Notes: generated from the letters alone by a model not told the origin. 64,000 nt of DNA from an uncultured bacterium (GCA_965652565.1 CBFGWL010000003.1:22457-86456); one strand, 5' to 3'. Counted from the stretch's first letter, positions 7,510 through 50,383 are shown. Translations and numbers: made by a program.

Positions 7510-7516
7510 AACCGGC

Positions 7517-10114
<2,598 letters not shown>

Positions 10115-11452: not shown

Positions 11453-11573
11453 GCGCGTCCTCCCGAAACTGCGCGGGTACCCTCGGCGACTACCGTAATG
11501 CGCCCGCCGCCCCGCGTCCAGGTCGCCGACGGCGGGCGAATACGATCGTCCGCCCGGCCGCGCCGGGCACCCC

Positions 11574-22308: not shown

Positions 22309-23421
22309 ATGGCGATGCGACTCGTCATGACGCTGCGGGTCCGCGACGAAGCGGACATCTTCGAGGAGAACCTGCGCTTCCATCGCGCCCAGGGAGTCGA
22401 CCGCTTCGTCGCGCTCGACAACGGCTCGGTCGGCTCCATCCGCGACATCCTCGACCGCTGGAGCGACGCCGGCCTGCTGGAGCGCATCTCCAGGCCCGCT
22501 GGTGAGAGCTCGCGCAGGCGCGCGGAGTGGGTCACCCTGATGGCGCGGCGGGCGGCCACCCACCACGCCGCCGATTGGGTCATCAACAACGACGCGGACG
22601 AGTTCTGGTGGCCCCTGCGTGGATCGCTGCGCGACGTGTTCGCCGCGATCCCCGAGCGCTACGCCGCGCTGAGCGCCCCGCGCACGGAGTTCGTCCCGCG
22701 CGCGGGCGAGGAGCCCTGGCCTGAGCGCCTGATCTACCGCGAGCGCCTCTCCAGCACGCTCCCGAAGCGCGCCCACCGCGCCCATCCGGAGGTCCTCGCG
22801 AACCCGCACATGGCCCGCATCCCGGGCGCCGGCGCGCCGTCGCACCGCGGGCGGGCCTGGCTGCGCACGAAGGCGACTCGGCAGCGCCCCAGCGACGTGC
22901 CCGCGCCGGTGCCGCGCTGGCCGGTGCGGGTCCTGCACTTCCCCGTGCGTTCGCTCGAGCAGTTCCGTGCCCGCGTGGAGCGGGCCCAAGCGGCCGGCCG
23001 CCACAGCGGCGTGGCGCGCGCCGGCGAGCTCTACGCGTCACTCGCGGAGGGGACGCTGGAGCGCCGCTACGCCGAGGTCGCCTACGACGACGAAGCGATC
23101 GCGGCGGGCGTGCGCGCCGGCGAGCTCGTTGAGGACTCTCGCCTGCGCGACTTTCTGCGCGTGTGCCCCGGGCTCGACGGGCCGGCTGAGTGGACGCCGC
23201 CCCCGGGTCTCGATCCCGAGCCGGGCGAGGAGACGGAGCTCGCCGACGACGGCCTCGCCGCGCTGCTGCGCGGCGAGCAGCTCGCGGAGGGCCGCCTGCG
23301 CACCGCCAGGCGGCGCCTGCGCCGCCTGGAGCGCGAGCTCGAGCGCGCCCGCGAGACCGACGACACGAACCTCCGCCGGCGCGTTGCGCGCCGGCTGCGG
23401 ACCCGGCGGGATTCACGGTGA
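22309..23421 (+). CDS. GT2-like glycosyltransferase (paralog 2 of 3)
   Basis: MRLVMTLRVRDEADIFEENLRFHRAQGVDRFVALDNGS, NNDADEFWWP and VLHFPVRSLEQFRARV, with an Arg-rich coiled tail. Starts 16 nt after purC. Confidence 0.7.
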   Translation: MAMRLVMTLRVRDEADIFEENLRFHRAQGVDRFVALDNGSVGSIRDILDRWSDAGLLERISRPAGESSRRRAEWVTLMARRAATHHAADWVINNDADEFWWPLRGSLRDVFAAIPERYAALSAPRTEFVPRAGEEPWPERLIYRERLSSTLPKRAHRAHPEVLANPHMARIPGAGAPSHRGRAWLRTKATRQRPSDVPAPVPRWPVRVLHFPVRSLEQFRARVERAQAAGRHSGVARAGELYASLAEGTLERRYAEVAYDDEAIAAGVRAGELVEDSRLRDFLRVCPGLDGPAEWTPPPGLDPEPGEETELADDGLAALLRGEQLAEGRLRTARRRLRRLERELERARETDDTNLRRRVARRLRTRRDSR

Positions 23422-24452
23422 GCCGCAACGTCTTCATCCAGGGAATGCGGCGATCGGGGACGACGATCCTCTACGACGCGTTCTGCGAGGACCCCGAGCT
23501 GCGCTGCTTCTACGAGCCGTTTCGCGAGGAGAACGTGACGCCCGGCGGGGGCAGCGGCGCCCGCGACGGCGATCTGTTCGCGGAGACCCGCAAGCTGCGT
23601 CGCGAGTTCCAACGCACGCAGCACCCGGAGATCCCGCTCGAGCTGTTCAACCACGGCGGGCCCCGGGCACCGGCCCTTGAGCTGCACGAGACGCTGCCGG
23701 CCTGGGGACTCGACTGGATGCGTTTTCTGCTCGACCAGGCGCCGGCGGTGCTCATCAAGCACGTCCGCATGTACCGCAAGATCGGCGTCCTCCACCAGCT
23801 CGATCCCGAGGCCGTGCTCGTGCATCTGGTGCGCGACCCGCGCGCCGTCAGCGCCTCGATGCTCCTGGGCCGCGGGCGCCGGCACCTGTGGCGCTACCCC
23901 GACGCCGACGCCTTCTTCAGCAGCTGGTCGCGGCGCAAGCTGTGGTCGAGCCGCGCCCTCTCCGACGCGCTCATCGCCGAGGGTGCCTACCCAGCGCTGC
24001 AGCACGGCGCCCCGGACTTCATGCGTCCGCTCATCGTCTGGCAGGCGGCCTTCAGCGCGACATACGAGGCGGGCCGCCGGCTCTTCGGGGAGCGCTACGT
24101 GCTCGTACGGCTCGACGATCTGCGCGTCGATCCCGCCGGGACCCTGGCGCGGATCTACGAGCGGCTGGAGCGCCCGGTGCCCGCTGCCGTGGCCGCGTGG
24201 GCAGAGGACAACGTGCGGCGCGACGCCGACATCCCGTTCGGCGACGACCCGCGTTGGGCGGATGCCGCCGAGCTGCTCGAGATGGGCGACGCGCTCGCCG
24301 CCGCGGGCTACGCGGACGCGTTCCCGGCGCCGAGCGGACGGCCCCTCGCGCTGGACCCGCCCGACCACGGCGCGCCGTCGCGTCTCGGCGGCGTGCTGGC
24401 CCGGGCGCGCGCCGGGTTGGACCGGGCGCGGGGGCGGCGTCGTTCTCGCTAG
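23418..24452 (+). CDS. divergent sulfotransferase-fold protein
   Basis: The GTG start overlaps the upstream TGA (GTGA). VFIQGMRRSGTTIL (5'-PSB-like) and HLVRDPRAVSAS (3'-PB-like). Confidence 0.65.
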   Translation: MSRNVFIQGMRRSGTTILYDAFCEDPELRCFYEPFREENVTPGGGSGARDGDLFAETRKLRREFQRTQHPEIPLELFNHGGPRAPALELHETLPAWGLDWMRFLLDQAPAVLIKHVRMYRKIGVLHQLDPEAVLVHLVRDPRAVSASMLLGRGRRHLWRYPDADAFFSSWSRRKLWSSRALSDALIAEGAYPALQHGAPDFMRPLIVWQAAFSATYEAGRRLFGERYVLVRLDDLRVDPAGTLARIYERLERPVPAAVAAWAEDNVRRDADIPFGDDPRWADAAELLEMGDALAAAGYADAFPAPSGRPLALDPPDHGAPSRLGGVLARARAGLDRARGRRRSR

Positions 24453-24477: not shown

Positions 24478-24708
24478 GTGAAAGCGCGCGTTCTGATTCG
24501 TCCGAAGGAAGGCATCCTCGACCCGCAGGGCAAGGCGGTCGAACGGGCGCTCCCGGCGCTTGGGTTCAGCGGGGTGAGCCACGTGCGGGTGGGGCGCCTG
24601 GTGGAGCTCGAGGCCGAGGATGCGTCGCGGCTCGACGAGCTCTGCGAGAAGCTGCTCGCCAATCCGCTCATCGAGGACTACGAGATCGTCGAGCTCCAGG
24701 AGGCCTAG
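24478..24708 (+). CDS. purS: FGAM synthase PurS subunit
   Basis: 76 aa. KARVLIRPKEGILDPQGKAVERAL...NPLIEDYEI. Confidence 0.9.
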   Translation: MKARVLIRPKEGILDPQGKAVERALPALGFSGVSHVRVGRLVELEAEDASRLDELCEKLLANPLIEDYEIVELQEA

Positions 24709-24712
24709 CGAC

Positions 24713-25399
24713 GTGGCTGCGCGCTTCGGGGTGATCCAGTTCCCAGGCTCCTGCGACGAGCGCGACGCGCTCGCGGCCTGCGAGCGCGCCGGCGAGGCGC
24801 GGCTCGTGTGGCATGAGGAGCGGGACCTGAGCGACATCGACGTGGTCGTGGTCCCCGGCGGCTTCTCCTACGGCGACTATCTGCGCGCGGGCGCCATCGC
24901 CCGCTTCGCTCCGGCAATGGAGGCGGTCGCCCGGTTCGCCGCTGAAGGCGGCCCGGTGCTGGGGATCTGCAACGGCTTCCAGGTGCTCTGTGAGGCGGGC
25001 CTTCTGCCGGGAGCGCTCCTGCCCAACGAGAACCTGCGCTTCATCTGCCGTCAGGTAGACCTCGAGGTCGCCTCAACGGACTCGGCGTTCACGTCGGCCC
25101 TCCAGGAGGGCGAGCTGCTCTCGGTCCCCGTCAAGCACATGAGCGGGCGCTACTACGCCCCGGACGAGATCCTCGATGAGCTCGAGGCCAACGGGCAGGT
25201 CGTCCTGCGCTACGCGCCCGGGCAGAACCCCAACGGCTCGGTCCGCGACATCGCCGGCGTGCGCAACGCCGCCGGCAACGTGATGGGCCTCATGCCCCAC
25301 CCCGAGCACGCGGTCGACGAGCTCACCGGCTCCGCCGACGGCCTGCGCCTCTTCGCCTCGGCGGCCGCCAGCCTGCGGGCCGTCCATGCGGCTGCCTGA
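24713..25399 (+). CDS. purQ: FGAM synthase glutaminase subunit PurQ
   Basis: GTG start 4 nt after purS. FGVIQFPGSCDERD, catalytic GICNGFQ and MPHPE. Confidence 0.93.
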   Translation: MAARFGVIQFPGSCDERDALAACERAGEARLVWHEERDLSDIDVVVVPGGFSYGDYLRAGAIARFAPAMEAVARFAAEGGPVLGICNGFQVLCEAGLLPGALLPNENLRFICRQVDLEVASTDSAFTSALQEGELLSVPVKHMSGRYYAPDEILDELEANGQVVLRYAPGQNPNGSVRDIAGVRNAAGNVMGLMPHPEHAVDELTGSADGLRLFASAAASLRAVHAAA

Positions 25400-26300
25400 T
25401 CCGCTCTTTCGCCTGCGCGCGCGTCGGGAGGCCGGCCCGCCGGCGCCGTTCGTGGTCGGCGTGGGCCGCTCCGGGACCACGCTCCTGCGGCTGATGCTCG
25501 ACGCGCACCCCCAGCTCGTCATCCCGCCCGAGACGCACTTCTTGCCGGAGCTGATCGACGCGGCGCGGCGCCGGGCCGGCGCCGAGGAGCTTGCCCGGAT
25601 CGCGGCGGCGAGCCGCCACTGGGGCGACCTCGGGATCACGGCCGCGGACTTCGAGGCGCGCCTGCGCCTCGGTGGAACGCAGCCCGACCGCGCCGCGCGC
25701 GCCTTCTACGAGCTCTACGCCGAGCGCCACGACAAGCCCCGTTGGGGCGACAAGACCCCGGGCTACGTCAAGCGCATGGCGATCATCGGGCGCGCGCTGC
25801 CGGAGGCGAGGTTCGTACACCTGATCCGCGACGGCCGCGACGTGGCGCTCTCGCGGCGGCGGCGCGGGATGGGCGCCGAGCGGCCGATGGCCGAGACCGC
25901 GGCGAAGTGGCGCGACCGCATCCTCGCCGCGCGGCGCCAGGCGCGCCGGCTGCGGGGGCGGTACCTGGAGCTGCGCTATGAGGACCTCGTCGCCGAGCCC
26001 GAGCCCATCCTGCGGCGCATCTGCGAGTTCATCGAGCTGCCCTACGAGCCCGCGATGCTCGCCTACCACCGCACCGCGCGCGAGCGCCTGGCCGAGATGA
26101 ACCGCGACCTGCCGCCCGTCGGCAAGCGGGGCTCGCGCGACGCGGCCGAGCGGATGGCGGCGCACGCGCTCGCGGCCGAACCGCCCCGTCCGGACCGCGT
26201 CAGCGCCTGGCGCAGCGAGATGACCCCCGCCGACGTCGCCGCCTTCGAGGGCGCGGCGGGTAGCCTGCTCGCGGAGCTCGGCTACGACGTGGCATCCTGA
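25386..26300 (+). CDS. PAPS-type sulfotransferase (array member 1)
   Basis: PFVVGVGRSGTTLLRLMLDAHPQLVIPPETHF, RWGDKTPGY, LPEARFVHLIRDGRDVALS and LLAELGY. The ATG overlaps the purQ 3' end by 14 nt. Confidence 0.85.
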   Translation: MRLPDPLFRLRARREAGPPAPFVVGVGRSGTTLLRLMLDAHPQLVIPPETHFLPELIDAARRRAGAEELARIAAASRHWGDLGITAADFEARLRLGGTQPDRAARAFYELYAERHDKPRWGDKTPGYVKRMAIIGRALPEARFVHLIRDGRDVALSRRRRGMGAERPMAETAAKWRDRILAARRQARRLRGRYLELRYEDLVAEPEPILRRICEFIELPYEPAMLAYHRTARERLAEMNRDLPPVGKRGSRDAAERMAAHALAAEPPRPDRVSAWRSEMTPADVAAFEGAAGSLLAELGYDVAS

Positions 26301-26328
26301 GCTCCGCGCGTGACACGCATCTCGAGCC

Positions 26329-27285
26329 ATGGGAAAAGTCCGCTACAGCTTTCGCTATCTGCGTAACCGCCGGCTGCGGGGCCGGGCCGAGCCGGAGTTC
26401 CCGGCGCCCTTCGTCGTCGGCGTCGGCCGCTCCGGCACGACGCTCCTGCGGCTGATCCTCGACGCGCACCCGGAGCTGGCGATCCCGCCGGAGACGCACT
26501 TCATGCCGCAGCTCATCATGCGCTCGGGCCAGCCCTGGTTCCCGCCCCAGCGCGTCGTGAAGCTGATCGTCGAGGACGAACACCGCCGCTGGGCCGACTT
26601 CGGGCTCGACGAGGAGCAGCTGCTCGAGCGGTTCCGCGCGCTGGAGCCGTTCAACCTCCCCGACGCGCTGCGCGAGTTCTACCGCGCCTACGCCGAAAAG
26701 CACGGCAAGCCGCGCTGGGGCGACAAGACGCCCGAGTACGTGCGCCGCATGCGCAGGATCAAGCGCACGCTGCCCGAGGCCCACTTCATTCACGTGATCC
26801 GCGACGGCAGGGACGTGACGCTCTCCACGAACAAGCGCATCGAGCAGCGCGGGCACCGCCAGCCGATCAAGGCGGCGCCGGCCGCGCGCCGCTGGCGCAG
26901 CCGGATCGAGAAGGCGCGAACCGACGGACCGGTGCTGGGCGACTACCTCGAGATCCGCTACGAGGACCTCGTCACGGACACCGAGCCAACGGTGCGCCGC
27001 GTCTGCGAGTTCATCGGCCTCGACTTCGACCCCGAGATGCTGCGCTATCACGAGCGCGCCGAGGAGCGCCTGCGCGAGATGGCCGGGGCGATGCCGGCCC
27101 GCGCCGGCCGTCCGCCGCGCGAGGCGGGCGAGCGCCTGCGCGCGCACAGGATGGCTACCAAGCCGCCGAGCAAGGAGCGCATCGCGCGGTGGCGCGAGGA
27201 GATGGATCCCGAGTACCGCGCCGAGTTCGAGGAGTACGCAGGCGATCTCCTGCAAGAACTCGGATATGACGTCGGCTCCGACTGA
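26329..27285 (+). CDS. PAPS-type sulfotransferase (array member 2)
   Basis: PFVVGVGRSGTTLLRLILDAHPELAIPPETHF, RWGDKTPEY, HFIHVIRDGRDVTLS and LLQELGY. Confidence 0.85.
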   Translation: MGKVRYSFRYLRNRRLRGRAEPEFPAPFVVGVGRSGTTLLRLILDAHPELAIPPETHFMPQLIMRSGQPWFPPQRVVKLIVEDEHRRWADFGLDEEQLLERFRALEPFNLPDALREFYRAYAEKHGKPRWGDKTPEYVRRMRRIKRTLPEAHFIHVIRDGRDVTLSTNKRIEQRGHRQPIKAAPAARRWRSRIEKARTDGPVLGDYLEIRYEDLVTDTEPTVRRVCEFIGLDFDPEMLRYHERAEERLREMAGAMPARAGRPPREAGERLRAHRMATKPPSKERIARWREEMDPEYRAEFEEYAGDLLQELGYDVGSD

Positions 27286-28171
27286 GCGCTCGCCGGCCCC
27301 GTTCGTCGTCGGGTTCGGCCGCTCCGGCACGACGCTCCTGCGGCTGATGCTGGACGCCCACCCAGCGCTCGCCGTCCCGCCCGAGACCGCGTTCCTGCCG
27401 CGGCTGATCCGCGCCTGCCTCGCTGGCGCGAGCCCGGCGGAGGCGCTCGCCCTGCTGCGCGAGCAGCCGCGCTGGGGCGACCTCGGGCTGGACGAGGACG
27501 AGGTGCTCGCGCGCTTCGGAGACGCGCCGCGACTCGACGCGGGACACGCAGCGCGCACGATCTACTCGCTCTACGCGGAGCGCCAGGGCAAGCCCCGCTG
27601 GGGCGACAAGACCCCCAGCTACTTCCGTCGCATGAAGCTCATCGAGGACGCACTGCCCGAAGCGCGGTTCGTGCACGTGATCCGCGACGGCCGCGACGCG
27701 GCCCTCTCGTTCCGGCGCGTCCCGCAGCATATGCGCGCGCGTCCCACGGAGACGATCGCCGAGGAGGCGGCGCGCTGGGCCCGCACGATCCGCAAGGCCC
27801 GCCGCCAGGGCCGGCGCGTGCGGCACTACCTGGAGGTGCGCTTCGAGGAGCTCGTCCGCGACCCCGAGGCGGCGCTGCGGCGCGTCTGCGAGTTCTGCGA
27901 GCTCGATTTCGCGCCCGAGATGCTGAACTACCACGAGCGCTCCGCCGAGCGCCTGCGCGAGATCGAGCGCCCGATGACGCTCGCGACGGGCCGGCGCGTC
28001 GACCCCGCTGACAGGGTGCGGATCTTCGGCCTCACCTCGGAGCCGCCGCGCGCGGAGCGGCTCGAGGTCTGGCGCAGGGAGATGTCGCCGGAGGACCAGG
28101 TCGCGTTCGAGCGCGAGGCGGGCAAGGTCCTGGCGCGGCTCGGCTACCCGCTCGCGGGCGAAGGGCCCTAA
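27266..28171 (+). CDS. PAPS-type sulfotransferase (array member 3)
   Basis: PFVVGFGRSGTTLLRLMLDAHPALAVPPETAF, RWGDKTPSY and RFVHVIRDGRDAALS. Overlaps member 2 by 20 nt. Confidence 0.85.
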   Translation: MTSAPTERSPAPFVVGFGRSGTTLLRLMLDAHPALAVPPETAFLPRLIRACLAGASPAEALALLREQPRWGDLGLDEDEVLARFGDAPRLDAGHAARTIYSLYAERQGKPRWGDKTPSYFRRMKLIEDALPEARFVHVIRDGRDAALSFRRVPQHMRARPTETIAEEAARWARTIRKARRQGRRVRHYLEVRFEELVRDPEAALRRVCEFCELDFAPEMLNYHERSAERLREIERPMTLATGRRVDPADRVRIFGLTSEPPRAERLEVWRREMSPEDQVAFEREAGKVLARLGYPLAGEGP

Positions 28172-28264
28172 GCCGACGCTGCCGCGGCGCGTCTGCCACC
28201 ATAAGCGGCGTCCGCGGCGGCCCCGGCATCGCTCGCCGCCCGCCCTCTACCCTCCTTTTCCTCT

Positions 28265-29203
28265 ATGGCTTCGATTCTTTCGAGACTGATCAGGCGCGAG
28301 CCCGACCGGCCCCCGTTCCCGTTCATCGTCGGCATGAACCGCTCCGGCACCACGCTGCTGCGGATGATGCTCGACGCGCACCCCGAGCTCACGATCCCGC
28401 CGGAGACACACTTCGTCCCGGCGCTGATCAAGGCGTGCCGCGAGCCCGACTGCACGCCCGAGAGCGCGCTCGAGGCGATGAAGTCGGCGCGCGAGTGGGG
28501 TGACTTCGACTTCAGCGACGAGGAGATGCTCGGCCGCCTGCGCGCGCTGCCCAAGCTGCGCCCCGGCCCGGCCGTGCGGACGTTCTACGAGGCGTACGCC
28601 GAGCGCCAGGGCAAGCCGCGCTACGGCGAGAAGACGCCCACCTACGTGCAGAAGATGAAGCTGATCCAGCGGGCGCTGCCCGAGGCCCGCTTCGTGCACG
28701 TCATCCGCGACGGCCGCGACGTCGCCCTCTCCGTGCTCGACCGCACGGTGCGCGACCTGACCGCCGCCGACGTGGCCCACCGCTGGCGCAAGAAGATCCG
28801 CAAGGCGCAGGAGGACGCGCCGGCTCTCCGCCACTACATGGAGGTCCGCTACGAGGACCTGATCCTGGACACCGAGCCCGTCCTGCGGCGCGTCTGCGAG
28901 TTCCTCGAGCTGGACTGGAGCAACGACGTCCTCCACTACCACGAGCGCTCGCCCGAGCGGCTCAAGGAGATGGCCCGCGCGCTGCCGGGCGGCGAGCGCG
29001 CCAAGGAGCTCTCGGTCGAGCGCCGGATGGCGACGCACGCGATGACGACCAAGCCGCCGAGCAAGGATCGCGTGCAGCGCTGGCGCCGCCAGATGACCGA
29101 GGAGCAGCGCCGGCAGTTCGAGGAGGTCGCCGGGGATCTGCTCGCGGAGCTCGGCTACCCCACGGACGAGGCGGTCGACGCCGTCTCCGACGCCCAGTCG
29201 TAG
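28265..29203 (+). CDS. PAPS-type sulfotransferase (array member 4)
   Basis: FPFIVGMNRSGTTLLRMMLDAHPELTIPPETHF, RYGEKTPTY, RFVHVIRDGRDVALS and LLAELGY. No SD is visible upstream. Confidence 0.8.
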   Translation: MASILSRLIRREPDRPPFPFIVGMNRSGTTLLRMMLDAHPELTIPPETHFVPALIKACREPDCTPESALEAMKSAREWGDFDFSDEEMLGRLRALPKLRPGPAVRTFYEAYAERQGKPRYGEKTPTYVQKMKLIQRALPEARFVHVIRDGRDVALSVLDRTVRDLTAADVAHRWRKKIRKAQEDAPALRHYMEVRYEDLILDTEPVLRRVCEFLELDWSNDVLHYHERSPERLKEMARALPGGERAKELSVERRMATHAMTTKPPSKDRVQRWRRQMTEEQRRQFEEVAGDLLAELGYPTDEAVDAVSDAQS

Positions 29204-29264
29204 CGGCCTTGCGCGCGATCGCGGCCGGACGCCCGGCGCGCCCGAGGCTCGCAGGAGCACACGC

Positions 29265-30347
29265 ATGAGGGTCGGCATCGTCACCAAGTGGTTCGCCAGC
29301 GGCCAGGCCGTCGTCTCGCGCTTCATCCGCTCCGCGCTCGACGAGCTCGGGCACGAGACGTTCGTGCTGGCGCGCGAGGGCACGGGCCCGCGCTCGGGCG
29401 TCACCGACCGCCCGCACGACCCCATCTGGGACCAGCCGGGCGTCACGCAGACCGGCGAGAGCGAAGTCCCCTACGCGACGTTCGAGCGCTGGGTGGACGA
29501 GCACGGGCTGGACGTCGTGATGACGGACAACCTGTACCAGTTCGAGGAGCTGCGCAGGCTGCGTGAGCGCGGGGTGCGAACCGTCGGCCGCTTCGTGTGG
29601 GAGCACTTCGCGGAGGAGCACGTGCCCGGCGCGAAGGAGGCGCTCGACGTCGTCTACTCGCTGCACCGCGCCGAGCAGGCCCGCTACGCGGAGTTCGGCA
29701 TCGAGAGCCCCTACGTGACCTGGGGATGTCACCCCGAGCTCGTCGGGGTCGAGCCGGCCCCACGCACCGACGACGCGATCACCCTGCTTCTGCCGGGTAG
29801 CTTCATGGGCCGGCGCAAGCCGCTCGCGGAGGTGCTGGAGGCGTTCTCGCGCACACGCGACGAGCGGCTGCGGCTGATCGTCAAGGGCCAGACGAGCAAG
29901 CGCCAGGGCAAGCTCGAGAAGGCCGCGGCAGCCGATCCCCGGATCCAGATCCGGATCGCCGATGAGCCCACGGCCGACCATCTGCGCTTCGTCGCGGGCT
30001 GCGACGTGTGCCTGGCGCCGACCCGCTGGGAGGGCCTCGGGCTCCCCCTCTACGAGGCGATCGCGTTCGGCCAGCCGGTGATCACCAACGACAACCCGCC
30101 GATGAACGAGGCGATCCTCGACGGCGTGAACGGCCTGCTGGTCGGGGCGAGCCAGGAGGGCACCGCGCGCTCGGGCATCCCGTCGTGGAGCCCCCACGTC
30201 GACGAGCTCGCCGCCGCCATCGAACGGATCGCCGACGACGATCTGCGAAGCCGGCTCGCGGCGGGCGCCCGCGAGCTGCGCGACGGCGAGCGCTCATGGG
30301 CGCGCACCGTGCAGGGCCTGCGCGAGCTGCTCGAGGACCTGGCGTGA
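29265..30347 (+). CDS. GT1/GT4-type glycosyltransferase (paralog 2 of 3)
   Basis: AGGAGC SD. MRVGIVTKWFASGQAVVSRFIRSALDELGHETFVLAR, IWDQPGVT and the EX7E motif in RWEGLGLPLYEA. Confidence 0.82.
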   Translation: MRVGIVTKWFASGQAVVSRFIRSALDELGHETFVLAREGTGPRSGVTDRPHDPIWDQPGVTQTGESEVPYATFERWVDEHGLDVVMTDNLYQFEELRRLRERGVRTVGRFVWEHFAEEHVPGAKEALDVVYSLHRAEQARYAEFGIESPYVTWGCHPELVGVEPAPRTDDAITLLLPGSFMGRRKPLAEVLEAFSRTRDERLRLIVKGQTSKRQGKLEKAAAADPRIQIRIADEPTADHLRFVAGCDVCLAPTRWEGLGLPLYEAIAFGQPVITNDNPPMNEAILDGVNGLLVGASQEGTARSGIPSWSPHVDELAAAIERIADDDLRSRLAAGARELRDGERSWARTVQGLRELLEDLA

Positions 30348-31204
30348 GCGAGCGGGCGCCGGCACCGTTCATCGTCGGCGTCATGCGGTCGGGAACGACC
30401 CTGCTGCGCCTCATGCTCGACGCCCACCCCGAGCTCGCGATCCCGCCGGAGACGCACTTCGTGCCGAAGCTGATCAAGCGCGTGAGCAAGGGCACGAGCG
30501 ACGCCGACGGCGTGCTCGAGGTGATCACGTCCGGCTCGCGCTGGCCCGACTTCCACCTCGACGCCGAGACCCTGCGCGCGCGTTTGCGCGAGCGGGAGCC
30601 GCTCGACGCCGGGACCGCCTTGCGCGTCTTCTACGAGGCCTACGCGGAGCGCTTCGGCAAGGAGCGCTGGGGCGACAAGACCCCGGGCTACGGCAAACGC
30701 CTGCTGCGCATCACGAAGGCGCTGCCCGAGGCTCGCTTCATCCACATCATCCGCGACGGCCGGGACGTGGCCGTGTCCAGGCGCCGCCGCGCCACCGATC
30801 CTGCCCCGGTCGCCAAGCACGCCAAGCGCTGGCAGGCGCGCATCAAGTCCACTCGCCGGCGCGCACAGCGCGTCGACCACTACCTCGAGGAGCGCTACGA
30901 GGCACTCGTGCTCGACCCCGAGCCCGTGCTGCGGCGCGTGTGCGAGTTCATCGAGCTGGAATACGACCCGGTGATGCTGCGCTACCACGAACGCGCCGAG
31001 GAGCGCCTGCGCGAGATCGCGAACCCCTTCGAGAAGATGTCGGCGGAGCGGCGCCTGGAGGCGCACCGGCTGGCCGCGGAGCCTCCGCAGCGCGGCCGGA
31101 TCGGCACGTGGCGGGAGGCGATGAGCCCCGAAGAGGTCGCCGAATTCGAGGCGGCCGCGGGCGCGATGCTCGACGAGCTGGGCTACGAGCGGGCGGGCGC
31201 ATGA
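30344..31204 (+). CDS. PAPS-type sulfotransferase (array member 5)
   Basis: The GTG start overlaps the upstream TGA (GTGA). PFIVGVMRSGTTLLRLMLDAHPELAIPPETHF, RWGDKTPGY and RFIHIIRDGRDVAVS. Confidence 0.85.
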   Translation: MSERAPAPFIVGVMRSGTTLLRLMLDAHPELAIPPETHFVPKLIKRVSKGTSDADGVLEVITSGSRWPDFHLDAETLRARLREREPLDAGTALRVFYEAYAERFGKERWGDKTPGYGKRLLRITKALPEARFIHIIRDGRDVAVSRRRRATDPAPVAKHAKRWQARIKSTRRRAQRVDHYLEERYEALVLDPEPVLRRVCEFIELEYDPVMLRYHERAEERLREIANPFEKMSAERRLEAHRLAAEPPQRGRIGTWREAMSPEEVAEFEAAAGAMLDELGYERAGA

Positions 31205-32295
31205 GGGTCGGCGTCGTCACCAAGTGGTTCAACCGCGGCCAGCCGGTGGTCGGCCGTCACACGCGCTCGGCCCTGGACGCGCTCGGCCACGAGACGTTCG
31301 TGCTCGCGCGCCCGAAGAAGGAGCGAGGCCCGATGCCGGGCGCCCTCGCGCGCGACGGGGTGTGGGACCAGCCGGGCGTCACCGAGGCCTCCGCCTACGA
31401 CATCCCGCTCGCCGAGTACGTCAACTGGGTCGACCGCAACGGGATCGAAGCGATCTTCTGCGACCAGAACTACCAGTTCGACGAGCTCGCGAAGCTGCGC
31501 AACCGCGGCGTGCTGGTCATCGGCCGCTTCGTGTGGGAGCACTTCACCGCGGAGCACATCGAGGGCACCCGCCGCGCGTACGACCTCGTCTTCTCGATGA
31601 CGCGCGCCGAGCAGGAGCGCTACCGCGGCATGGGCCTGGACACGCCCTACGTGCCGTGGGGCTGCCACCCCGAGCTCGTCGCCGTGGGCGACGAGGTGCG
31701 CCGCGAGCCGGGCGAGACCGTGACGTTCGTCTTCCCCGGCGGCTTTTTGGGGCATCGGAAGCCGCTTGAGCCCGTGCTCGAGGCCTGGGCGCGCGTGCGC
31801 AGCCCGCGGGCGCGCCTGCTCGTCAAGGCGCAGGTGGAGCGCCGTCTGGAGGCCGCCGAGCGCGCGGCCGCCGCCGACGACCGGATCTCGCTGCGCATCG
31901 GCGACGAGCCCACGCCCGAGCATTTGCGCGCGGTCGCCGCCTGCGACGTGACCGTCTCGCCCGCGCGCTGGGAGGGGCTCGGCCTGCCGCTGTACGAGGC
32001 GGTGGCCTTCGGGCAGCCCGCGATCACCAACGCGACGCCGCCGATGGACGAGATCACGCTGCATGAGCGCAACGGCCTGCTCATCCCATCGCACCCGGAT
32101 GGCACGGCGCGCTCGGGCATCACCGCGCACGCCTTCGACGTGGACGCGATGGCGGCCGCGATCGAGCGCTTGGCCGAGGACGACGAGCTGCGCGAGCGGC
32201 TCGCGCAGGGCGCTCGCGAGCTGCGTGAAGGCGAGCGCGCGTGGCAGCGCACCGTCGATGGCTTCGCCTCGCTGCTAGAAATGGCCGCCGCATGA
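31201..32295 (+). CDS. GT1/GT4-type glycosyltransferase (paralog 3 of 3)
   Basis: The ATG overlaps the upstream TGA (ATGA). MRVGVVTKWFNRGQPVVGRHTRSALDALGHETFVLARP, VWDQPGVT and RWEGLGLPLYEA. Confidence 0.82.
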   Translation: MRVGVVTKWFNRGQPVVGRHTRSALDALGHETFVLARPKKERGPMPGALARDGVWDQPGVTEASAYDIPLAEYVNWVDRNGIEAIFCDQNYQFDELAKLRNRGVLVIGRFVWEHFTAEHIEGTRRAYDLVFSMTRAEQERYRGMGLDTPYVPWGCHPELVAVGDEVRREPGETVTFVFPGGFLGHRKPLEPVLEAWARVRSPRARLLVKAQVERRLEAAERAAAADDRISLRIGDEPTPEHLRAVAACDVTVSPARWEGLGLPLYEAVAFGQPAITNATPPMDEITLHERNGLLIPSHPDGTARSGITAHAFDVDAMAAAIERLAEDDELRERLAQGARELREGERAWQRTVDGFASLLEMAAA

Positions 32296-32335
32296 TCGAT
32301 TCTCCGTCACAGCGCCACGCCGCCCGGAGGCTCCC

Positions 32336-33268
32336 GTGAACTACGCCAAGCGCGCGCGGATCATCCTGGCGCGGCGCCGCCTGCGCGGCCAGACCCCGCC
32401 GCCCGGCCCGGCACCGTTCGTCTGCGGCGTGACGCGCTCGGGCACGACGCTGTTGCGGCTCATGCTGGACGCGCATCCCGACCTGGCCATCCCCGGCGAG
32501 ACGCACTGGGTGCCCAAGTTCATCAAGCGCCTCGAGAAGCGCAAGATGACCGCCGACGAGATGGCCGACTTCATCATCGAGAGCAAGCGCTGGCCGGACT
32601 TCCACCTCGACCCGGACGCCCTCCGGCAGCGCTTTCGCAGCCTCAAGCATCTGAACGCGGCCGACGCGATCCGTGCCTTCTACGGCCTCTACTCCGAGCG
32701 CGAGGGCAAGACCCGCTACGGGGACAAGACGCCCGGATACGTCCGCGAGATGCTGCGCCTGCAGCGGGTGCTGCCCGAGGCGCGCTTCATCCACATCATC
32801 CGCGATGGGCGCGACGTCGCCCTCTCGCATCTGCGCATGAACTGGGGCCCGGAGAGCTACGAGGAGTCGGCGCAGCTGTGGGTCGAGCGGATCACCACCG
32901 CCCGCCGGCAGGCGCCGAAGGTACGGCATTACACGGAGGTCAAGTTCGAGGACCTCGTGCGCGACACAGAGGGCGTACTGCGCAAGGTCTGCGACTTCAT
33001 CGAGCTCGACTACGACCCCTGCATGCTCGACTACCACGAGCGCGCCGAGCAGCGGCTGCGCGAGAAGGCCCGGGACCTCCCCCGGCGCAACCGCCCGGTG
33101 CAGACGGCGGAGGCGCGCATGGAGTCCCACCGGCTCGCCAAGGAGCCGCCGCGCGAGGACCGGCTCGGCATGTGGCGCCAGCGGATGAGCCCGGACGAGA
33201 TCGCAAGCTACGAGGCGATCGCGGGCCCCCTGCTCACCGAGCTCGGCTACGAGCTCGGCTCGAAGTAG
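32336..33268 (+). CDS. PAPS-type sulfotransferase (array member 6)
   Basis: GGAGG SD with a GTG start. PFVCGVTRSGTTLLRLMLDAHPDLAIPGETHW, RYGDKTPGY, RFIHIIRDGRDVALS and LLTELGY. Confidence 0.85.
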   Translation: MNYAKRARIILARRRLRGQTPPPGPAPFVCGVTRSGTTLLRLMLDAHPDLAIPGETHWVPKFIKRLEKRKMTADEMADFIIESKRWPDFHLDPDALRQRFRSLKHLNAADAIRAFYGLYSEREGKTRYGDKTPGYVREMLRLQRVLPEARFIHIIRDGRDVALSHLRMNWGPESYEESAQLWVERITTARRQAPKVRHYTEVKFEDLVRDTEGVLRKVCDFIELDYDPCMLDYHERAEQRLREKARDLPRRNRPVQTAEARMESHRLAKEPPREDRLGMWRQRMSPDEIASYEAIAGPLLTELGYELGSK

Positions 33269-33377: not shown

Positions 33378-34052
33378 ATGAGAAAGCGCGTGCTGGGCGC
33401 TGCCGCTCTGGCAGCGTGCTTTGCCTTGACCAGCGCCGCCACCGCGGCGGTGATCAAGGGGAGCAAGGACGACGAGGTGCTCGGGGGCACCCACAAGGCC
33501 GACCGGATCCAGGGCCGGGGCGGCCACGATCTGATCGGCGGGAACAACGGCAACGACCGGATCTCAGGGGGCGGCGGGAACGATCGCCTCTACGGCGGGC
33601 GAGGCAACGACGTCGTGCGAGGCGGACCCGGCGTCGACTTCTTGTTCGAAGGGGATCCGCTCGGCGGCGCCTGGATCACCCGCGCGCACACCCCACCCGC
33701 GCGCGGCATCGCCCATCACGACCTGCCGGGCAACGACAAGCTCTTCGGGGGCGGCGGGGCCGATTCCATCTACGGCTCGAAGGGCCGCGACCGCATCGAG
33801 GGACAAGGAGGCCATGACTTCCTGCAAGGCGGCCCCGGTGCGGACCTGATCAGGGGCGGCGCCGGTGAGGACACCATCTACGGCGACGCCGGGAAGGACA
33901 GGCTGTTCGGTGGCGCAGGCGACGACTACCTGAACGCCGTCGATGGCGCGCCGGGCGACAAGGTGGACTGCGGACCCGGCGACGACGAGGCCCAGGTCGA
34001 CCCCGGTGACGACGTGGCGGGCAACTGCGAAACGGTCTCGACCCCGGCCTGA
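33378..34052 (+). CDS. secreted RTX-like calcium-binding repeat protein
   Basis: Signal peptide, then GGxGxD nonapeptide runs (GGNNGNDRISGGGGNDRLYGGRGNDVVRGGPGVD) and a C-terminal CGPGDDEAQVD...GNCETV. Confidence 0.8.
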   Translation: MRKRVLGAAALAACFALTSAATAAVIKGSKDDEVLGGTHKADRIQGRGGHDLIGGNNGNDRISGGGGNDRLYGGRGNDVVRGGPGVDFLFEGDPLGGAWITRAHTPPARGIAHHDLPGNDKLFGGGGADSIYGSKGRDRIEGQGGHDFLQGGPGADLIRGGAGEDTIYGDAGKDRLFGGAGDDYLNAVDGAPGDKVDCGPGDDEAQVDPGDDVAGNCETVSTPA

Positions 34053-34069
34053 GCGAAGGGACGTACACC

Positions 34070-34771
34070 ATGAGGACACGCTTCAAGATCGCCGCGTTCG
34101 CCGCGTCGGTGACCCTGCTGAGCGCCACCTGCGCGCTCGCCGCGCAGATCCAGGGAACCAACCGCAACGAGATCCTCGGCGGCACGAAGAAGGCCGACGT
34201 GATCAAGGGCAAGGGCGGCAACGATCTGATCGGCGGGAACGGCGGCAACGACCGGATCGCCGGCAACGGCGGCCACGACACGCTGTACGGCATGAAGGGC
34301 AACGACACGGTTCACGGCGGGCCCGGCCAAGACGAACTGAACGAGGGCGTCGTGCTCGGCCTGCTCAACCGCGAGGCCGCGCCAGCTCCCGGGGCGGAGC
34401 GGAACCCCGCCCACCGCGGCATCGCGTTCGACCTGCCCGGCAACGACAAGCTGTACGGCGGAGGCGGGGGCGACGTGATCTACGCATCCGCGGGGCGCGA
34501 TCTCGTCGACGGCGGGCCCGGGTCGGACTACTACCTGCACGGCGGCCCCGGCAACGACCGGGTCCTGGGCAAGGGCGGTCATGACCAGCTCGATGGCGGC
34601 CCCGGCCGGGACGTGATCAACGGCGGCCCGGGCGACGACACGATCTACGCCGTCGACGATGAGCGCGACGAGATCATTTGCGGCCCCGGCGACGACGAGG
34701 CCGTGGTCGACGCCCAGGACGAGGTCGCCCCGGACTGCGAGACCGTGCACATCGGCGCCATCCCGTTTTAG
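34070..34771 (+). CDS. secreted RTX-like calcium-binding repeat protein (tandem paralog)
   Basis: Same architecture as the previous gene: GGNGGNDRIAGNGGHDTLYGMKGND... and CGPGDDEAVVD...PDCETV. Confidence 0.8.
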   Translation: MRTRFKIAAFAASVTLLSATCALAAQIQGTNRNEILGGTKKADVIKGKGGNDLIGGNGGNDRIAGNGGHDTLYGMKGNDTVHGGPGQDELNEGVVLGLLNREAAPAPGAERNPAHRGIAFDLPGNDKLYGGGGGDVIYASAGRDLVDGGPGSDYYLHGGPGNDRVLGKGGHDQLDGGPGRDVINGGPGDDTIYAVDDERDEIICGPGDDEAVVDAQDEVAPDCETVHIGAIPF

Positions 34772-34856: not shown

Positions 34857-37085
34857 GTGACCCAGCAGCCCGAGACAGCATCGAAGCACCGCGAGCTCGG
34901 GCTCACCGACTACGAGTACGAGCGCATCTGCGACCAGCTCGGGCGGGCGCCGAACGACGTCGAGCTGGCGATGTTCTCGCTGCTGTGGTCGGAGCACTGC
35001 GCGTATAAGCACTCGCGCAAGCTCCTGCGCCGGTTGCCGACCGAGGGCCCGCGGGTCGTCATGGGCCCGGGCGAGAACGCGGGCGCCGTGGACGTCGGAG
35101 AGGGCTACGCGGTCGCGTTCAAGGTCGAATCGCACAACCATCCGAGCGCCGTCGAGCCCTTCCAGGGGGCGGCCACCGGTGTCGGCGGGATCCTGCGCGA
35201 CGTCTTCGCGCTCGGCGCGCGACCCATCGCGCTGCTCGACTCCCTGCGCTTCGGGGAGCTCGATTCCGAGCGCTCGCGCTACCTCTTCGATCACGTCGTC
35301 GCCGGCATCGGCCACTACGGGAACTCGATCGGCGTCCCCACCGTAGGCGGCGAGGTCTACTTCGAGCCTCCCTACGAGCAGAACTGCCTCGTGAACGCGA
35401 TGTGCGTGGGCTTCGCGCGGACCGATGACATGATCCGCGCCGCCGCCGCGGGTGTCGGCAACATCGTCGTTCTGATGGGCGCCGCGACCGGGCGCGACGG
35501 CATCGGCGGCGCCTCGGTGCTCGCCTCCGCCGAGCTCGAGGAGGGCGACTCCTCGAAGCGCCCGACCGTGCAGATCGGCGACCCGTTCGAGGAGTCGAAG
35601 CTCCTGGAGTGCTGCCTCGAGCTGTTGCGCGAAGGCCTGCTGGTCTCCCTGCAGGACCTCGGCGCGGCGGGGCTCACGTCCTCGGGCGGCGAGATGGCGT
35701 CGGCCGGCGGAGTCGGCATCGACATCGACGTCGCCAAAGTGCCGTTGCGCGAGGCGGACATGGAGCCCTTCGAGATCATGGTCTCCGAATCGCAGGAGCG
35801 GATGCTCGCGGTCGTCGAGCCCGACAAGGTCGAGCGCGTGATCGAGGTCTGCCGGCGCTGGCAGACGGGCGCCGCGGCGGTGGGCGAGATCACCGACACC
35901 GGGCACTTCCGGGTGCTGCGCGACGGCGAGGTGGTGGGCGACATGCCGGTCGCCGCGCTCGTCGACGGCTGTCCGCTGTACGACCTCGAGCCCGCCGAGC
36001 CCGAGGGCTGGCTCTACGGCGAGCGGGCGGCAACTCTCGAGAACGACGCGTCGCCGGCCGAGACGCTGGCCGCGATCCTGGCCGCGCCCTCCGTGGCGTC
36101 GAAGCGCTGGGCGTTCGAGCAGTACGACTCGATCGTCGGGTCGCGCACGGTCCGCCGTCCGGAGAGCGCGGACGCCGCCGTGCTCACGCTCCCCGAGGCC
36201 GACACCGCGATCGCGGTATCGATCGACGGCAACGGTCGCCGCGTGGCATGCGACCCCTACCGCGGCACGATCGAGGTGCTCCTGGAGTGCGCGCAGAACC
36301 TCGCCTGCGTCGGCGCGGAGCCGCTCGGGCTCACCAACTGCCTGAACTTCGGCAACCCCGAGAAGCCCAATGTCGCCTGGCAGCTCGACCGCTCCGTGCA
36401 GGCGCTCGCCGACGGTTGCCGCGCCCTGGACATCCCGGTCGTCGGCGGCAACGTCTCGCTCTACAACGAGACCGACCGCGGCCCGATCTACCCGACGCCC
36501 GTGATCGGGCTCGTCGGCGAGCTGCCCGATCCCGGCGTGGCGCCGGGGGTCGCGCTGCGCCCCGGCGACGCCGTCGCGATCGCCGGCCCCTTCCAGCCGG
36601 ACCTCGCGGGCTCCGAGTTCGCCAAGCAGCGCGGCGCGCTCGGCCCGGGCCTGCCCGAGGCCGACCTCGACGCCCACCGGGCTGCGCTCGCTTTCATCCG
36701 CGGCGCTGCGCGCTCCGGGCGCGTGCGCGCCATCCACGACATCAGCGACGGTGGCTTCGCCGCGGCGCTGGCCGAGATGGCGATCGCGGGGGAAGTCGGG
36801 GTCGCGGTGGACGCCGGCGGCTTTCCGGGATTCAGCGGGCTCGACCCCGACACGGCGCTCTTCGGCGAGGGTCCGGGCGGGTACCTCTTGGCCGGCGGCC
36901 AAAAGGAGCTGCAGGAGCTCGCCGCCGATGCCGAGCGAGCCGGCGTGCCGATGACCCTGATCGGGGCCCAGGAAGGCGACGGCGTGCGGATCGCGGTTGG
37001 CGACGCGACGCTCGAGCTGCCGCTCGCCCGGGCGGCCGAGGCCTGGAACTCGCTCCCGGACCGCATGGGGCCGACGCAGCCTTGA
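34857..37085 (+). CDS. purL: FGAM synthase large subunit PurL
   Basis: 742 aa. LWSEHCAYKHS, KVESHNHPSAVEPFQGAATGVGG and the duplicated AIR-synthase-like fold pattern. Confidence 0.96.
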   Translation: MTQQPETASKHRELGLTDYEYERICDQLGRAPNDVELAMFSLLWSEHCAYKHSRKLLRRLPTEGPRVVMGPGENAGAVDVGEGYAVAFKVESHNHPSAVEPFQGAATGVGGILRDVFALGARPIALLDSLRFGELDSERSRYLFDHVVAGIGHYGNSIGVPTVGGEVYFEPPYEQNCLVNAMCVGFARTDDMIRAAAAGVGNIVVLMGAATGRDGIGGASVLASAELEEGDSSKRPTVQIGDPFEESKLLECCLELLREGLLVSLQDLGAAGLTSSGGEMASAGGVGIDIDVAKVPLREADMEPFEIMVSESQERMLAVVEPDKVERVIEVCRRWQTGAAAVGEITDTGHFRVLRDGEVVGDMPVAALVDGCPLYDLEPAEPEGWLYGERAATLENDASPAETLAAILAAPSVASKRWAFEQYDSIVGSRTVRRPESADAAVLTLPEADTAIAVSIDGNGRRVACDPYRGTIEVLLECAQNLACVGAEPLGLTNCLNFGNPEKPNVAWQLDRSVQALADGCRALDIPVVGGNVSLYNETDRGPIYPTPVIGLVGELPDPGVAPGVALRPGDAVAIAGPFQPDLAGSEFAKQRGALGPGLPEADLDAHRAALAFIRGAARSGRVRAIHDISDGGFAAALAEMAIAGEVGVAVDAGGFPGFSGLDPDTALFGEGPGGYLLAGGQKELQELAADAERAGVPMTLIGAQEGDGVRIAVGDATLELPLARAAEAWNSLPDRMGPTQP

Positions 37086-39242: not shown

Positions 39243-39373
39243 GGACGCTATGCGCGGGTGCGCGTTGAGCCCGCGCGCGCCCGGTAACCTCGGCCGCCCG
39301 CGATCGAAGTGCGATTGGCCGAGTGGATCATGGTCGTCGACGATCTGGCGCGGTCACGGGTAGGTCCCCACAG

Positions 39374-48702: not shown

Positions 48703-49086
48703 CGGTCAACCCCCGGGGCGAGGGGCCGGGAGCGGGCCGACCGCTCGGAGCCCCTCGCGCCGGTCATCGCGCGCGCTCGGTCAGGTATCGCGGCGCCGGC
48801 GACGGCGGCGACAACGGCGTCGGAGGCGGCGCGTCTTGCGCCTGCGGCACGGCGTCCGCGACTGCGAGCGCGAACGGGTGCGGGTCGCCCTGGAGCTGGC
48901 CCGCAGCGCCGGTGAGAGCCCATTGAACATGGCTGCTCCTCGCTGGTTGGCTCGGCCCGGCCTCGTGCCGGGCCCTGACACCTCATGCGCATACCCCATA
49001 GGGCATCCCGTATCCGCTTCGCGGGCCGCAGCCCGTCAGGGGAACCGGCGCGTGCGCCGCGCAAGCCGCCTACGATCGCGGAGCCT

Positions 49087-50199: not shown

Positions 50200-50255
50200 C
50201 GCCGGCGCGCGAAAAGACGCTCGCAACCGGCCCGCCCACGTCTACGATTCGTGGT

Positions 50256-50329: not shown

Positions 50330-50383
50330 TCCGGGAAACCGCTTGGGATGGCGGGTTTTGCCCGTCAGCCACAATAGGGGCCC

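Follow-up and report, generated by a model that had tools for sequence, protein, structure and literature searches.

Sulfated glycans, regarded as rare among bacteria, have been described as essentially cyanobacterial, with a few marine cases and one unverified actinomycete prediction (PMC13390465, PMC8205485, PMC11641403). The synechan xss cluster of Synechocystis PCC 6803, which is plasmid-borne and serves one sulfated glycan, holds two sulfotransferases (STs) and eight glycosyltransferases (GTs) along with Wzx, Wzy, a polysaccharide co-polymerase (PCP) and a dedicated regulator, and its gene count matches the sugar:sulfate stoichiometry (PMC8205485). The wps-1 cluster of Actinoplanes missouriensis is a predicted sulfated-exopolysaccharide cluster with two STs, GTs and Wzx/Wzy (PMC13390465), and the marine Vibrio sp. 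KMM 8419 has a capsular polysaccharide cluster with three STs, cysNDC and an ABC transporter, whose product was found to be sulfated by nuclear magnetic resonance (PMC11641403). Sugars on lipo-oligosaccharides or glycolipids are O-sulfated by NoeE/NodH and the mycobacterial Stf0/Stf1, using 3'-phosphoadenosine-5'-phosphosulfate (PAPS). The Nod-factor and mycobacterial sulfolipid pathways use one ST each. The raxX-raxSTAB cluster of Xanthomonas likewise has one ST, a cytoplasmic enzyme resembling the protein-tyrosine sulfotransferases (TPSTs), together with a precursor-peptide gene and a dedicated exporter and no GT genes. Here we describe a stretch of 64,000 nucleotides from an uncultured bacterium (GCA_965652565.1, CBFGWL010000003.1:22457-86456; hereafter the window), in which six paralogous STs and two GTs form a same-strand array (25386-33268) between the purine-synthesis genes purQ and purL. 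We lean, though not strongly, towards a reading in which each ST sulfates its own position on a short glycan made by the GTs, giving a multiply sulfated glycoconjugate.

With xss the array shares the clustering of ST and GT genes, but the ratio is inverted, at six STs to two GTs (10 to 6–7 in the window), there is no Wzx, Wzy or PCP, and the genes are chromosomal and lie in the pur operon. It resembles wps-1 in being an actinobacterial cluster that combines GTs and STs, but the STs of wps-1 and of the Vibrio cluster carry other ST domains (Gal/GlcNAc and heparan-sulfate-type) and are not arranged in arrays. Its STs are bacterial, cytoplasmic and TPST-like, as is that of the rax cluster, but neither a precursor gene nor an exporter accompanies them. 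Clustering of STs with GTs is a feature also of Wzx/Wzy- or ABC-dependent sulfated polysaccharide clusters, whose export/priming and cysD/N/C genes were not found in the array or in the related arrays examined. An ST-dominated array, STs of a TPST-like clade and a place inside a purine operon are each missing from xss, wps-1, the Vibrio cluster and the Nod-factor and sulfolipid pathways. Clusters of STs and GTs for sulfated glycoconjugates were already known, but not an array that recurs across an order, is rich in STs, lacks export genes and places TPST-like enzymes inside the pur operon and in coupling with it. An earlier, sequence-only reading of this DNA could name no characterised pathway with the layout, and our full-text literature searches found no paper describing it.

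The window has a G+C content of ~72% and its closest genome match is the Solirubrobacterales metagenome-assembled genome (MAG) DATCLC01 SMAG_U7112, at ~90% protein identity; its host is an uncultured soil actinobacterium of the order Solirubrobacterales. Relatives of the array were collected by one scan of species-representative genomes, which returned at least 569, nearly all of them Solirubrobacterales/Thermoleophilia MAGs. The comparisons below use 75 loci mapped by tblastn (numbered with the prefix L), whose 298 ST domains were clustered at 55% identity into orthologue groups (prefix S). Ratios of non-synonymous to synonymous substitution rates (dN/dS) were computed against the nearest species. 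No cultured host appears among the best 120 homologues of ST4 or those of a Conexibacteraceae S0 orthologue, all of which are MAG or metagenome proteins, and the database names of ST homologues are just "sulfotransferase" or "hypothetical protein". Full-text literature searches also found no paper tying sulfotransferases to Solirubrobacter, Conexibacter or Thermoleophilia.

Sulfotransferases of the array

The sequence-only reading had called six same-strand ST genes of about 290–320 aa each, and six intact open reading frames (ORFs) of 286–318 aa are indeed present on the plus strand: ST1 (25386..26300), ST2 (26329..27285), ST3 (27266..28171), ST4 (28265..29203), ST5 (30344..31204) and ST6 (32336..33268), the last enzyme of the array. 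Each matches the Pfam family Sulfotransfer_3 (PF13469), with E-values of 2e-41, 3.8e-38, 1.1e-39, 1.6e-36, 9.4e-36 and 1.3e-37, respectively. The six and ST7, a seventh close paralogue reported earlier and confirmed at 12843..13739 on the minus strand (PF13469 E 1.6e-40), score 124–143 bits on this family (gathering cutoff 27 bits), and the array six also match Sulfotransfer_1. When the seven are aligned, the five other array paralogues and ST7 are 50–55% identical to ST1. The motifs that had been quoted as common to the six array members hold without exception across the seven: G-x-x-RSGTTLLR-x-x-LDAHP, P-x-ET, G-(D/E)-K-(T/S)-P, F-x-H-x-IRDGRD-x-x-x-S and a C-terminal L-x-x-LGY.

The 298 family members of the 75 loci have 37 positions in common that are conserved to 95% or more, including S27-G28-T29-T30, E47-T48, K123, R148-D-G-R-D152 and S156 (ST4 numbering, here and below). 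The 5'-phosphosulfate-binding loop and the 3'-phosphate-binding segment, invariant in the seven paralogues, both fall at this level of conservation in the 298 relatives. The most variable stretches are residues 61–105 and 241–255, the first of which agrees with the variable segment of roughly 60 aa noted earlier after ETHF. Profile scores, conserved PAPS-binding residues and the fold of the ST4 model (below) all place these proteins in ST families, as had been proposed, and their assignment as PAPS-type STs with intact active sites is well supported by sequence and predicted structure.

A profile built from the seven paralogues and searched against the Protein Data Bank (PDB) found TPST1 and TPST2 first (E 1e-27 to 1e-23), followed by the ST domains of the OLS and CurM polyketide synthases (PKSs; E 3e-24 and 2e-17), with StaL and the mycobacterial Stf proteins trailing far behind. 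The AlphaFold (AF2) model of ST4 (predicted local distance difference test, pLDDT, 87.3; predicted template-modelling score, pTM, 0.86) gave the same order in Foldseek, with TPST1/2 best (E 2e-11, template-modelling score (TM) 0.57–0.62, ~24% identity) and CurM and OLS at E 3e-8; all 50 PDB fold matches listed for the model are STs. In the alignment with human TPST2, R26, E47 and K123 of ST4 correspond to Arg78, Glu99 and Lys158, reported to be catalytic and mutation-sensitive (PMC10951654), and the Arg-to-Glu spacing is identical. The triad is not specific to tyrosine sulfation, because CurM-type STs share it.

With TPST1 and TPST2 (PDB 5wri, 3ap1, 8w5z) the array STs have in common the 5'- and 3'-phosphate-binding motifs, the Arg/Glu/Lys triad and a single alpha/beta domain. 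They differ in having no membrane anchor or luminal location, in a conserved C-terminal extension beyond the Pfam domain (Y-H-E-R ... PP-x-x-x-R-x-x-x-W-R ... LGY) and in occurring as 4–9 paralogues beside GTs. The CurM and OLS domains (PDB 4gbm, 4gox), second-best in the PDB and members of the same Sulfotransfer_3 clade, are parts of PKS megasynthases that act on beta-hydroxyacyl groups borne by an acyl carrier protein (ACP), whereas the array STs are free-standing and have no PKS, ACP or thioesterase nearby. Matches to the sugar-acting NoeE, Stf1 and Stf9 are weak and far below family thresholds: for NoeE, a fucose sulfotransferase, E is ~1e-10 and the NCBIfam model scores 39.5–43 bits over the N-terminal part only, for a cutoff of 500. 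The ST fold search did not separate peptide, acyl and sugar acceptors, and since the closest solved relatives are TPSTs and PKS domains at ~24% identity, the acceptor is not readable from homology.

The array STs might accordingly be bacterial tyrosylprotein sulfotransferases of the RaxST/TPST kind, sulfating secreted proteins in the cytoplasm before export, while the GTs glycosylate the same proteins or act separately. Proteins of the RTX family would be the candidate substrates: two RTX genes directly follow ST6, their products are Asp/Gly-rich with many D-x-(L/I)-Y-G motifs, and RTX ORFs lie near ST genes in three further independent lineages (four in all). That TPSTs lead the PDB matches both by profile and by fold, and that the catalytic Arg-Glu spacing is that of TPST2, would fit as well. 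The similarity to TPST, however, is concentrated in the PAPS-binding core, the fold TM to TPST is only ~0.6, and the hydroxyacyl-acting PKS domains score nearly as well. At the positions of TPST2 Arg101 and Arg105, which we take to be peptide-binding residues, the array STs have a His and a variable residue. Most arrays have no RTX gene, but every one has GT genes, and unlike raxX-raxSTAB the array has no precursor-peptide gene or peptidase-type exporter. Four to nine STs of ancient divergence in each array, normal for regiospecific glycan sulfation, are hard to explain by tyrosine sulfation, which we regard as unlikely.

Position in the purine operon

The sequence-only reading was silent on the pur-operon context. 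The array occupies the interval between purQ and purL in the order ST1, ST2, ST3, ST4, GTa, ST5, GTb, ST6. Upstream are purS (24478..24708, plus strand; Pfam PurS E 2.7e-25) and purQ (24713..25399, plus strand; GATase_5 E 5e-38), which encodes the glutaminase subunit of formylglycinamidine (FGAM) synthase and whose start is supported by a 228-aa gene call on an identical JGI contig. The downstream flank is purL, which like purS encodes an FGAM synthase subunit, here the large one (34857..37085, plus strand; Pfam AIRS, AIRS_C and FGAR-AT_linker). ST1 starts at 25386 and shares 14 nt with purQ, whose stop is at 25399, and 4-nt overlaps of purQ with an ST are found in the relatives L008 (9995/9992) and L059 (9541/9538), so that an ST is translationally coupled to an essential purine-synthesis gene. 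Within the array, the overlaps described earlier are all seen in the sequence: 20 nt between ST2 and ST3 at 27266, GTGA at 30344, where the GTa stop overlaps the ST5 start, and ATGA at 31201, where the ST5 stop overlaps the GTb start. A terminator scan gave none inside the array better than shuffled sequence.

Coupling of ST1 to purQ in the window and its relatives, and a purC-ST-purS-purQ-[array]-purL order kept at 70–80% identity of the Pur proteins, would also be expected if the array modified a purine intermediate, a nucleoside or a nucleotide, or tuned the balance of adenine nucleotides and PAPS. Against such a role, the same ST and GT families are found among the dnaK-operon, clpB and other housekeeping genes and in clusters free of pur genes, no known nucleoside-modifying precedent needs 4–9 STs, and an Rfam scan detected no riboswitch or purine-responsive element near the array. 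We consider a function in purine metabolism highly improbable.

Glycosyltransferases

The two GT genes interleaved with the STs are GTa (29265..30347, plus strand; PF00534 E 3.9e-17, 62.8 bits) and GTb (31201..32295, plus strand; PF00534 E 1.1e-17, 64.6 bits; cutoff 26.4 bits). They are 58% identical to each other, match Pfam Glycos_transf_1/Glyco_trans_1_4 and have a third paralogue in the window, GTc (11574..12653, plus strand), which is 54% identical to GTa; an E-x7-E motif (E256, E264) is invariant in GTa and GTb. The sequence-only reading had them as two paralogous EX7E-type GT1 genes between the STs, which stands except for the family: "GT1" is only the Pfam name, and the CAZy family is GT4. 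The AF2 model of GTb (pLDDT 90.8) finds SPS, PimA, MshA, BshA, GlgM and PimB' as best PDB folds (TM 0.70–0.76), and by sequence and model GTa and GTb are GT4-type retaining enzymes with a GT-B fold. Lipid, small-molecule and polymer acceptors were not distinguishable in the GTb fold search. JGI automatic annotation labels many GTb orthologues "1,2-diacylglycerol 3-alpha-glucosyltransferase", a weak lead towards a glycolipid.

Enzymes of a second kind, GT2_4, are encoded at 22309..23421 (plus strand; PF13704 E 4e-13), between purC and purS, and at 6005-7294, between hspR and clpB. The former is supported by gene calls on the identical JGI contig, and its stop overlaps by 4 nt the start (23418) of STdivB, a divergent ST described below. 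The GT2_4 proteins have a long C-terminal part, in which hhalign found no hidden ST domain; the weak Pfam "GT4-conflict" match reflects clan overlap with Glycos_transf_1 and not defence; and PADLOC gave no defence-system match for the STs, GTs, RTX or GT-C proteins.

Conservation and selection

Conservation across related genomes had been suggested as a check, and the purQ-[ST/GT]-purL layout does recur in Solirubrobacterales MAGs. The order purC-ST-purS-purQ-[STs+GTs]-purL is found in dozens of MAG species of the order whose Pur proteins are only 70–80% identical to those of the window. All 20 of the 20 loci that hold both purQ and purL have a 7.4–14.5 kb interval with 3–7 STs and 1–5 GT4s, a proportion that is biased because the loci were fetched by ST similarity. 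At least four array architectures can be told apart, all pairing STs with GT4 or GT2_4 genes. Type A, the window-like one, reads purQ-S6-S3-S0-GT4-GT4-S2-purL. Type B has four or five GT4s, seven STs, two O-methyltransferases and a metallo-beta-lactamase-fold protein; in locus L019 (1355-7071) a Methyltransf_3 O-methyltransferase, a second S-adenosylmethionine-dependent methyltransferase and the metallo-beta-lactamase-fold protein lie between purQ and the GT/ST genes, which suggests that in these lineages sugars are methylated as well as sulfated. Type C begins with a divergent ST followed by GT2_4, and type D with GT2_4 followed by a divergent ST. GT4 and GT2_4 genes are also at the centre of the ST clusters that lie away from the pur locus (L052, L067). 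In locus L016 a single 699-aa ORF (7492-9591) joins a C-terminal PurQ part, an ST domain and a GT2_4 domain; since the N-terminal part of PurQ is missing, a frameshift is suggested, and we suspect an assembly indel and not a true fusion.

The 298 ST domains fall into at least 30 groups, with 64–75% identity within groups and 39–55% between them, and the window's seven close paralogues belong to seven different groups: ST1 to S6, ST2 to S3, ST4 to S0, ST5 to S12, ST6 to S2, ST7 to S10 and ST3 to a singleton. S0 is the most conserved array member and near-universal, occurring in 50 of the 58 loci that have at least three STs, and metagenome homologues of ST4 are 74–92% identical to it. ST5 is found in few relatives only, between two GT4 genes (L036, L037, L079). 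ST3 has no orthologue among the 298 STs; in the nearest relative, L007, only the shared intergenic sequence (11901-12023) lies between ST2 and ST4, so that ST3 is either a recent lineage-specific gain from an unsampled source or was lost in the relative. A singleton ST3 and the restriction of ST5 to few lineages indicate a stable core with turnover at the edges. Group-specific residues, constant within a group but not between groups, are found at positions 24, 25, 46, 77, 157, 160 and 236–257. Those at 24 and 25, ahead of RSGTT, and at 46, ahead of the catalytic Glu, adjoin the catalytic motifs, as would be expected if every group acted on an acceptor position of its own or differed in regiospecificity.

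Values of dN/dS are 0.17 for ST1, 0.15 for ST2, 0.14 for ST4, 0.08 for ST6, 0.11 for GTa and 0.13 for GTb, comparable to 0.09 for purQ and 0.125 for purL. These STs and GTs are anciently diverged and have been kept across the order under constraint at the level of housekeeping genes. Decay of tandem duplicates, or mis-assembly, would make the array non-functional. This has only the general tendency of tandem paralogues to decay in its favour, and can be set aside almost entirely: the ORFs are intact, the dN/dS values low, and the paralogues ancient and not recent repeats, since they are no more than 45–55% identical and are each matched by separate orthologues in other species. Nor is the array an assembly artefact, as its proteins recur at 100% identity and in unchanged order on independent metagenome assemblies (JGI 3300033752 and several Logan runs; 21 contigs).

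In another explanation the STs would act separately from the GTs and sulfate small molecules that are not glycans, for example specialised metabolites, menaquinone-like lipids or xenobiotics, in the manner of cytosolic SULTs or mycobacterial Stf enzymes, and their clustering with GTs would only reflect a permissive site of insertion. Actinobacterial pur clusters are known to tolerate unrelated insertions, and the at least 30 groups in 75 loci, the turnover of array content between lineages (ST3 and ST5 gained or lost) and a cytochrome P450 among the STs of L048 would be consistent with this. It does not account for the stop-start overlaps of GT and ST genes or for the pairing of STs with GTs in every architecture and in non-pur clusters. 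Selection is moreover as strong as on purQ and purL, and the genes are kept in small genomes such as the 2.56-Mb chromosome OY970239 (L056/L074), which would not be expected of dispensable detoxification or secondary metabolism. We judge small-molecule sulfation to be rather unlikely.

Proposed product

What the window and its relatives show is the enzyme families and their intact active sites, the coupling within the operon, the synteny across the order, the division into orthologue groups and the purifying selection. From them we infer cooperation on one acceptor, a sugar as that acceptor, a lipid anchor and a role in the envelope. That STs and GTs work on one product is supported by the stop-start overlaps of GT and ST genes, the retained ST-GT linkage and the equal purifying selection on both. 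Several observations argue indirectly for a sugar acceptor: the STs always lie beside GT4 or GT2_4 genes, in every architecture and in L052 and L067; one architecture adds O-methyltransferases, typical sugar-tailoring enzymes; a sugar epimerase gene lies just downstream of purL; and regiospecific sulfation of a glycan would normally call for many diverged STs in one array. The sequence-only reading had gone further and proposed alternating glycosylation and multi-site sulfation of one acceptor. Joint action is plausible, but the alternation was read off the gene order only and is without support, since the order of these orthologue groups differs in related genomes.

The sulfated glycoconjugate that we favour would be made on a cytoplasmic assembly line. 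GTa and GTb, probably with GTc and the GT2_4 enzymes, would make a short glycan from nucleotide sugars, and specialised PAPS-dependent O-sulfotransferases, one orthologue group per position or sugar, would add several sulfates. Each ST would act by a TPST/CurM-type mechanism, the G-x-x-RSGTT loop binding the 5'-phosphosulfate and the IRDGRD...S segment the 3'-phosphate of PAPS. The invariant Glu of P-x-ET would deprotonate the acceptor hydroxyl, and the invariant Arg of RSGTT and Lys of GDKTP would stabilise the sulfuryl group in transfer. As product we envisage a sulfated glycolipid, in which a membrane lipid carries the short glycan, or a short lipid-linked oligosaccharide. Either is favoured over a Wzx/Wzy polysaccharide because the array lacks a flippase, a polymerase and chain-length or priming enzymes; no Wzx/Wzy, PCP or priming-transferase domain was detected among the scanned window ORFs or the related arrays examined. 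The STs and GTs would be transcribed and translated with purS-purQ, and such joint expression implies that the product would be made whenever the cell grows, fitting a constitutive component of the Solirubrobacterales envelope.

A number of points weigh against this proposal. Its support comes from gene context, sequence and predicted structure, and the nearest characterised relatives of the STs are protein-tyrosine sulfotransferases and PKS beta-hydroxyacyl domains, not carbohydrate sulfotransferases, of which the sole signal is the ~40-bit N-terminal match to NoeE. PAPS supply has to be assumed, because cysD/N/C are absent from the window and the related loci: Pfam scans found none among the annotated window genes, and the P-loop motif of adenosine 5'-phosphosulfate (APS) kinase was found in none of the related loci scanned. 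No export or attachment function is linked to the array in most genomes. Because they were retrieved by ST similarity, the related loci include only array-bearing genomes. Finally, polar-lipid profiles of cultured Solirubrobacter list no sulfolipid, although the methods used would not reveal one (PMC10722151).

Other genes in the window

Reading from the left, the window encodes dnaK, grpE, dnaJ, hspR, a GT2_4, clpB, an unknown secreted protein, GTc, ST7, STdivA, purD, purE, purB, a PMT_2-like protein, purC, a GT2_4, STdivB, purS, purQ and the array, and after it two RTX genes, purL, a GalE-like epimerase, a GT2 (minus strand), a divergent ST-like ORF, purF, recQ and purH. In total there are ten ST-like, three GT4, three GT2_4 and one GT-C-like gene, scattered among the dnaK/clpB/pur housekeeping genes; between 5394 and 16224, well outside the array, GT and ST genes are interspersed with housekeeping genes. 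Three divergent ST-like ORFs, GTc and the three GT2_4 genes went unmentioned in the sequence-only reading.

STdivA (~13804..14553, plus strand; PF13469 E 1.7e-14, PF00685 E 7e-11) carries QRAGTS ... RDPVARFLS; its start is uncertain, the ORF opening at 13459. Between GTc and purD it is accompanied by ST7 and a GYD-domain ORF, and several relatives, too, have a GTc-like GT4 gene upstream of purD. STdivB (23418..24452, plus strand; PF13469 E 1.4e-19; RRSGTT ... RDPRAVSAS) is kept between purC and purS in most related genomes. The third divergent ORF (39323..40108, plus strand; 261 aa) has GMHRSGTS, GVKDP and FRNPVDVTRS motifs, no Pfam match and a weak hhalign match to the ST alignment (probability 8.7%). 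Its homologues sit among ST genes in L074, L076 and L079, and to judge from its motifs it is probably a tenth, very divergent ST.

RTX1 (33378..34052, plus strand; HemolysinCabind E 5.7e-33) and its paralogue RTX2 (34070..34771, plus strand; E 1.7e-30) encode beta-roll proteins with signal-like N-termini. RTX1 has a promoter-like TTGACG...TAGGAA of its own upstream, and both genes evolve faster than the array enzymes (dN/dS 0.38 and 0.58, respectively). At this position they occur only in close relatives, outside the conserved core; in other lineages RTX ORFs lie within 2 kb of ST genes at L025 (14880-16481), L052 (889-2507) and L067 (1762-4531). The RTX proteins might accept the sulfated product or act as its partners, or they might be surface proteins that have no relation to it.

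The NAD-dependent GalE-like epimerase/dehydratase downstream of purL (37451..38413, plus strand; Pfam Epimerase E 4.8e-59; NCBIfam galE 150 bits, below cutoff) is a possible supplier of sugar donor. A probable sulfate ABC importer (51006..54769, minus strand; SBP_bac_11, two BPD_transp_1, ABC_tran + TOBE_3), assigned from its domains, lies ~18 kb from the array and is a candidate link only; a Rrf2-family regulator (50384-50842) adjoins it. An MsbA/PglK-like half-transporter ABC exporter (46831-48702, minus strand) lies 13.5 kb downstream, beyond purL, purF, recQ and purH. It adjoins a Glyco_hydro_cc protein (48985-50199) and is a candidate flippase for a lipid-linked product.

The PMT_2-like GT-C membrane protein (18483-20645; 720 aa) is found only in the closest relatives, and a second PMT_2 protein beside ST/GT genes, in L052 (3720-5207), is unrelated to it at the phmmer level. 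GT-C proteins beside ST and GT genes hint at extracytoplasmic transfer of a lipid-linked sugar or glycan; as a conserved partner of the array GT-C was rejected, given the narrow distribution of the one protein and its lack of relation to the other. Beside GTc, a 448-aa ORF (10229-11575, minus strand) without Pfam match, with an Asp-box-like SNDGGKTW and a signal-like N-terminus, may encode a secreted BNR/sialidase-like beta-propeller protein. The Rfam matches in the window are ordinary and unrelated to the array, namely a tRNA-Lys(UUU) at 50255-50332 and a thiamine pyrophosphate (TPP) riboswitch at 57729-57815 (minus strand) upstream of thiO/thiG.

Implications

A mostly uncultured, soil-abundant order keeps arrays of 3–7 TPST-like STs with GTs, constrained like essential purine genes. 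The purQ-purL interval is flanked by housekeeping genes as O-antigen loci are, and by that analogy it may be a serotype-like, variable "sulfation-code" locus making a polysulfated, phosphate-free anionic glycolipid or short lipid-linked glycan as a major, growth-coupled envelope component of an order that ranks among the most abundant soil actinobacteria, a suggestion that we regard as possible but doubtful. In some lineages a GT-C enzyme might transfer the sulfated glycan onto RTX beta-roll surface proteins. If such a sulfation code existed, it would be the first bacterial glycan pathway with at least four dedicated STs, and its product an organosulfate pool of soils that has gone unrecognised.

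Were the acceptor protein tyrosine instead, no bacterial TPST-like system known would come near this one in size. The at least 30 diverged subfamilies of soluble bacterial STs, presumably differing in regiospecificity, would be useful for enzymatic sulfation. If the multiply sulfated envelope glycoconjugate that we favour is made, it would change the picture of the cell surface of these organisms and could be relevant to desiccation and the binding of ions, to anionic polymers that spare phosphate and to phage receptors, and it would add a microbial source of soil organosulfate.

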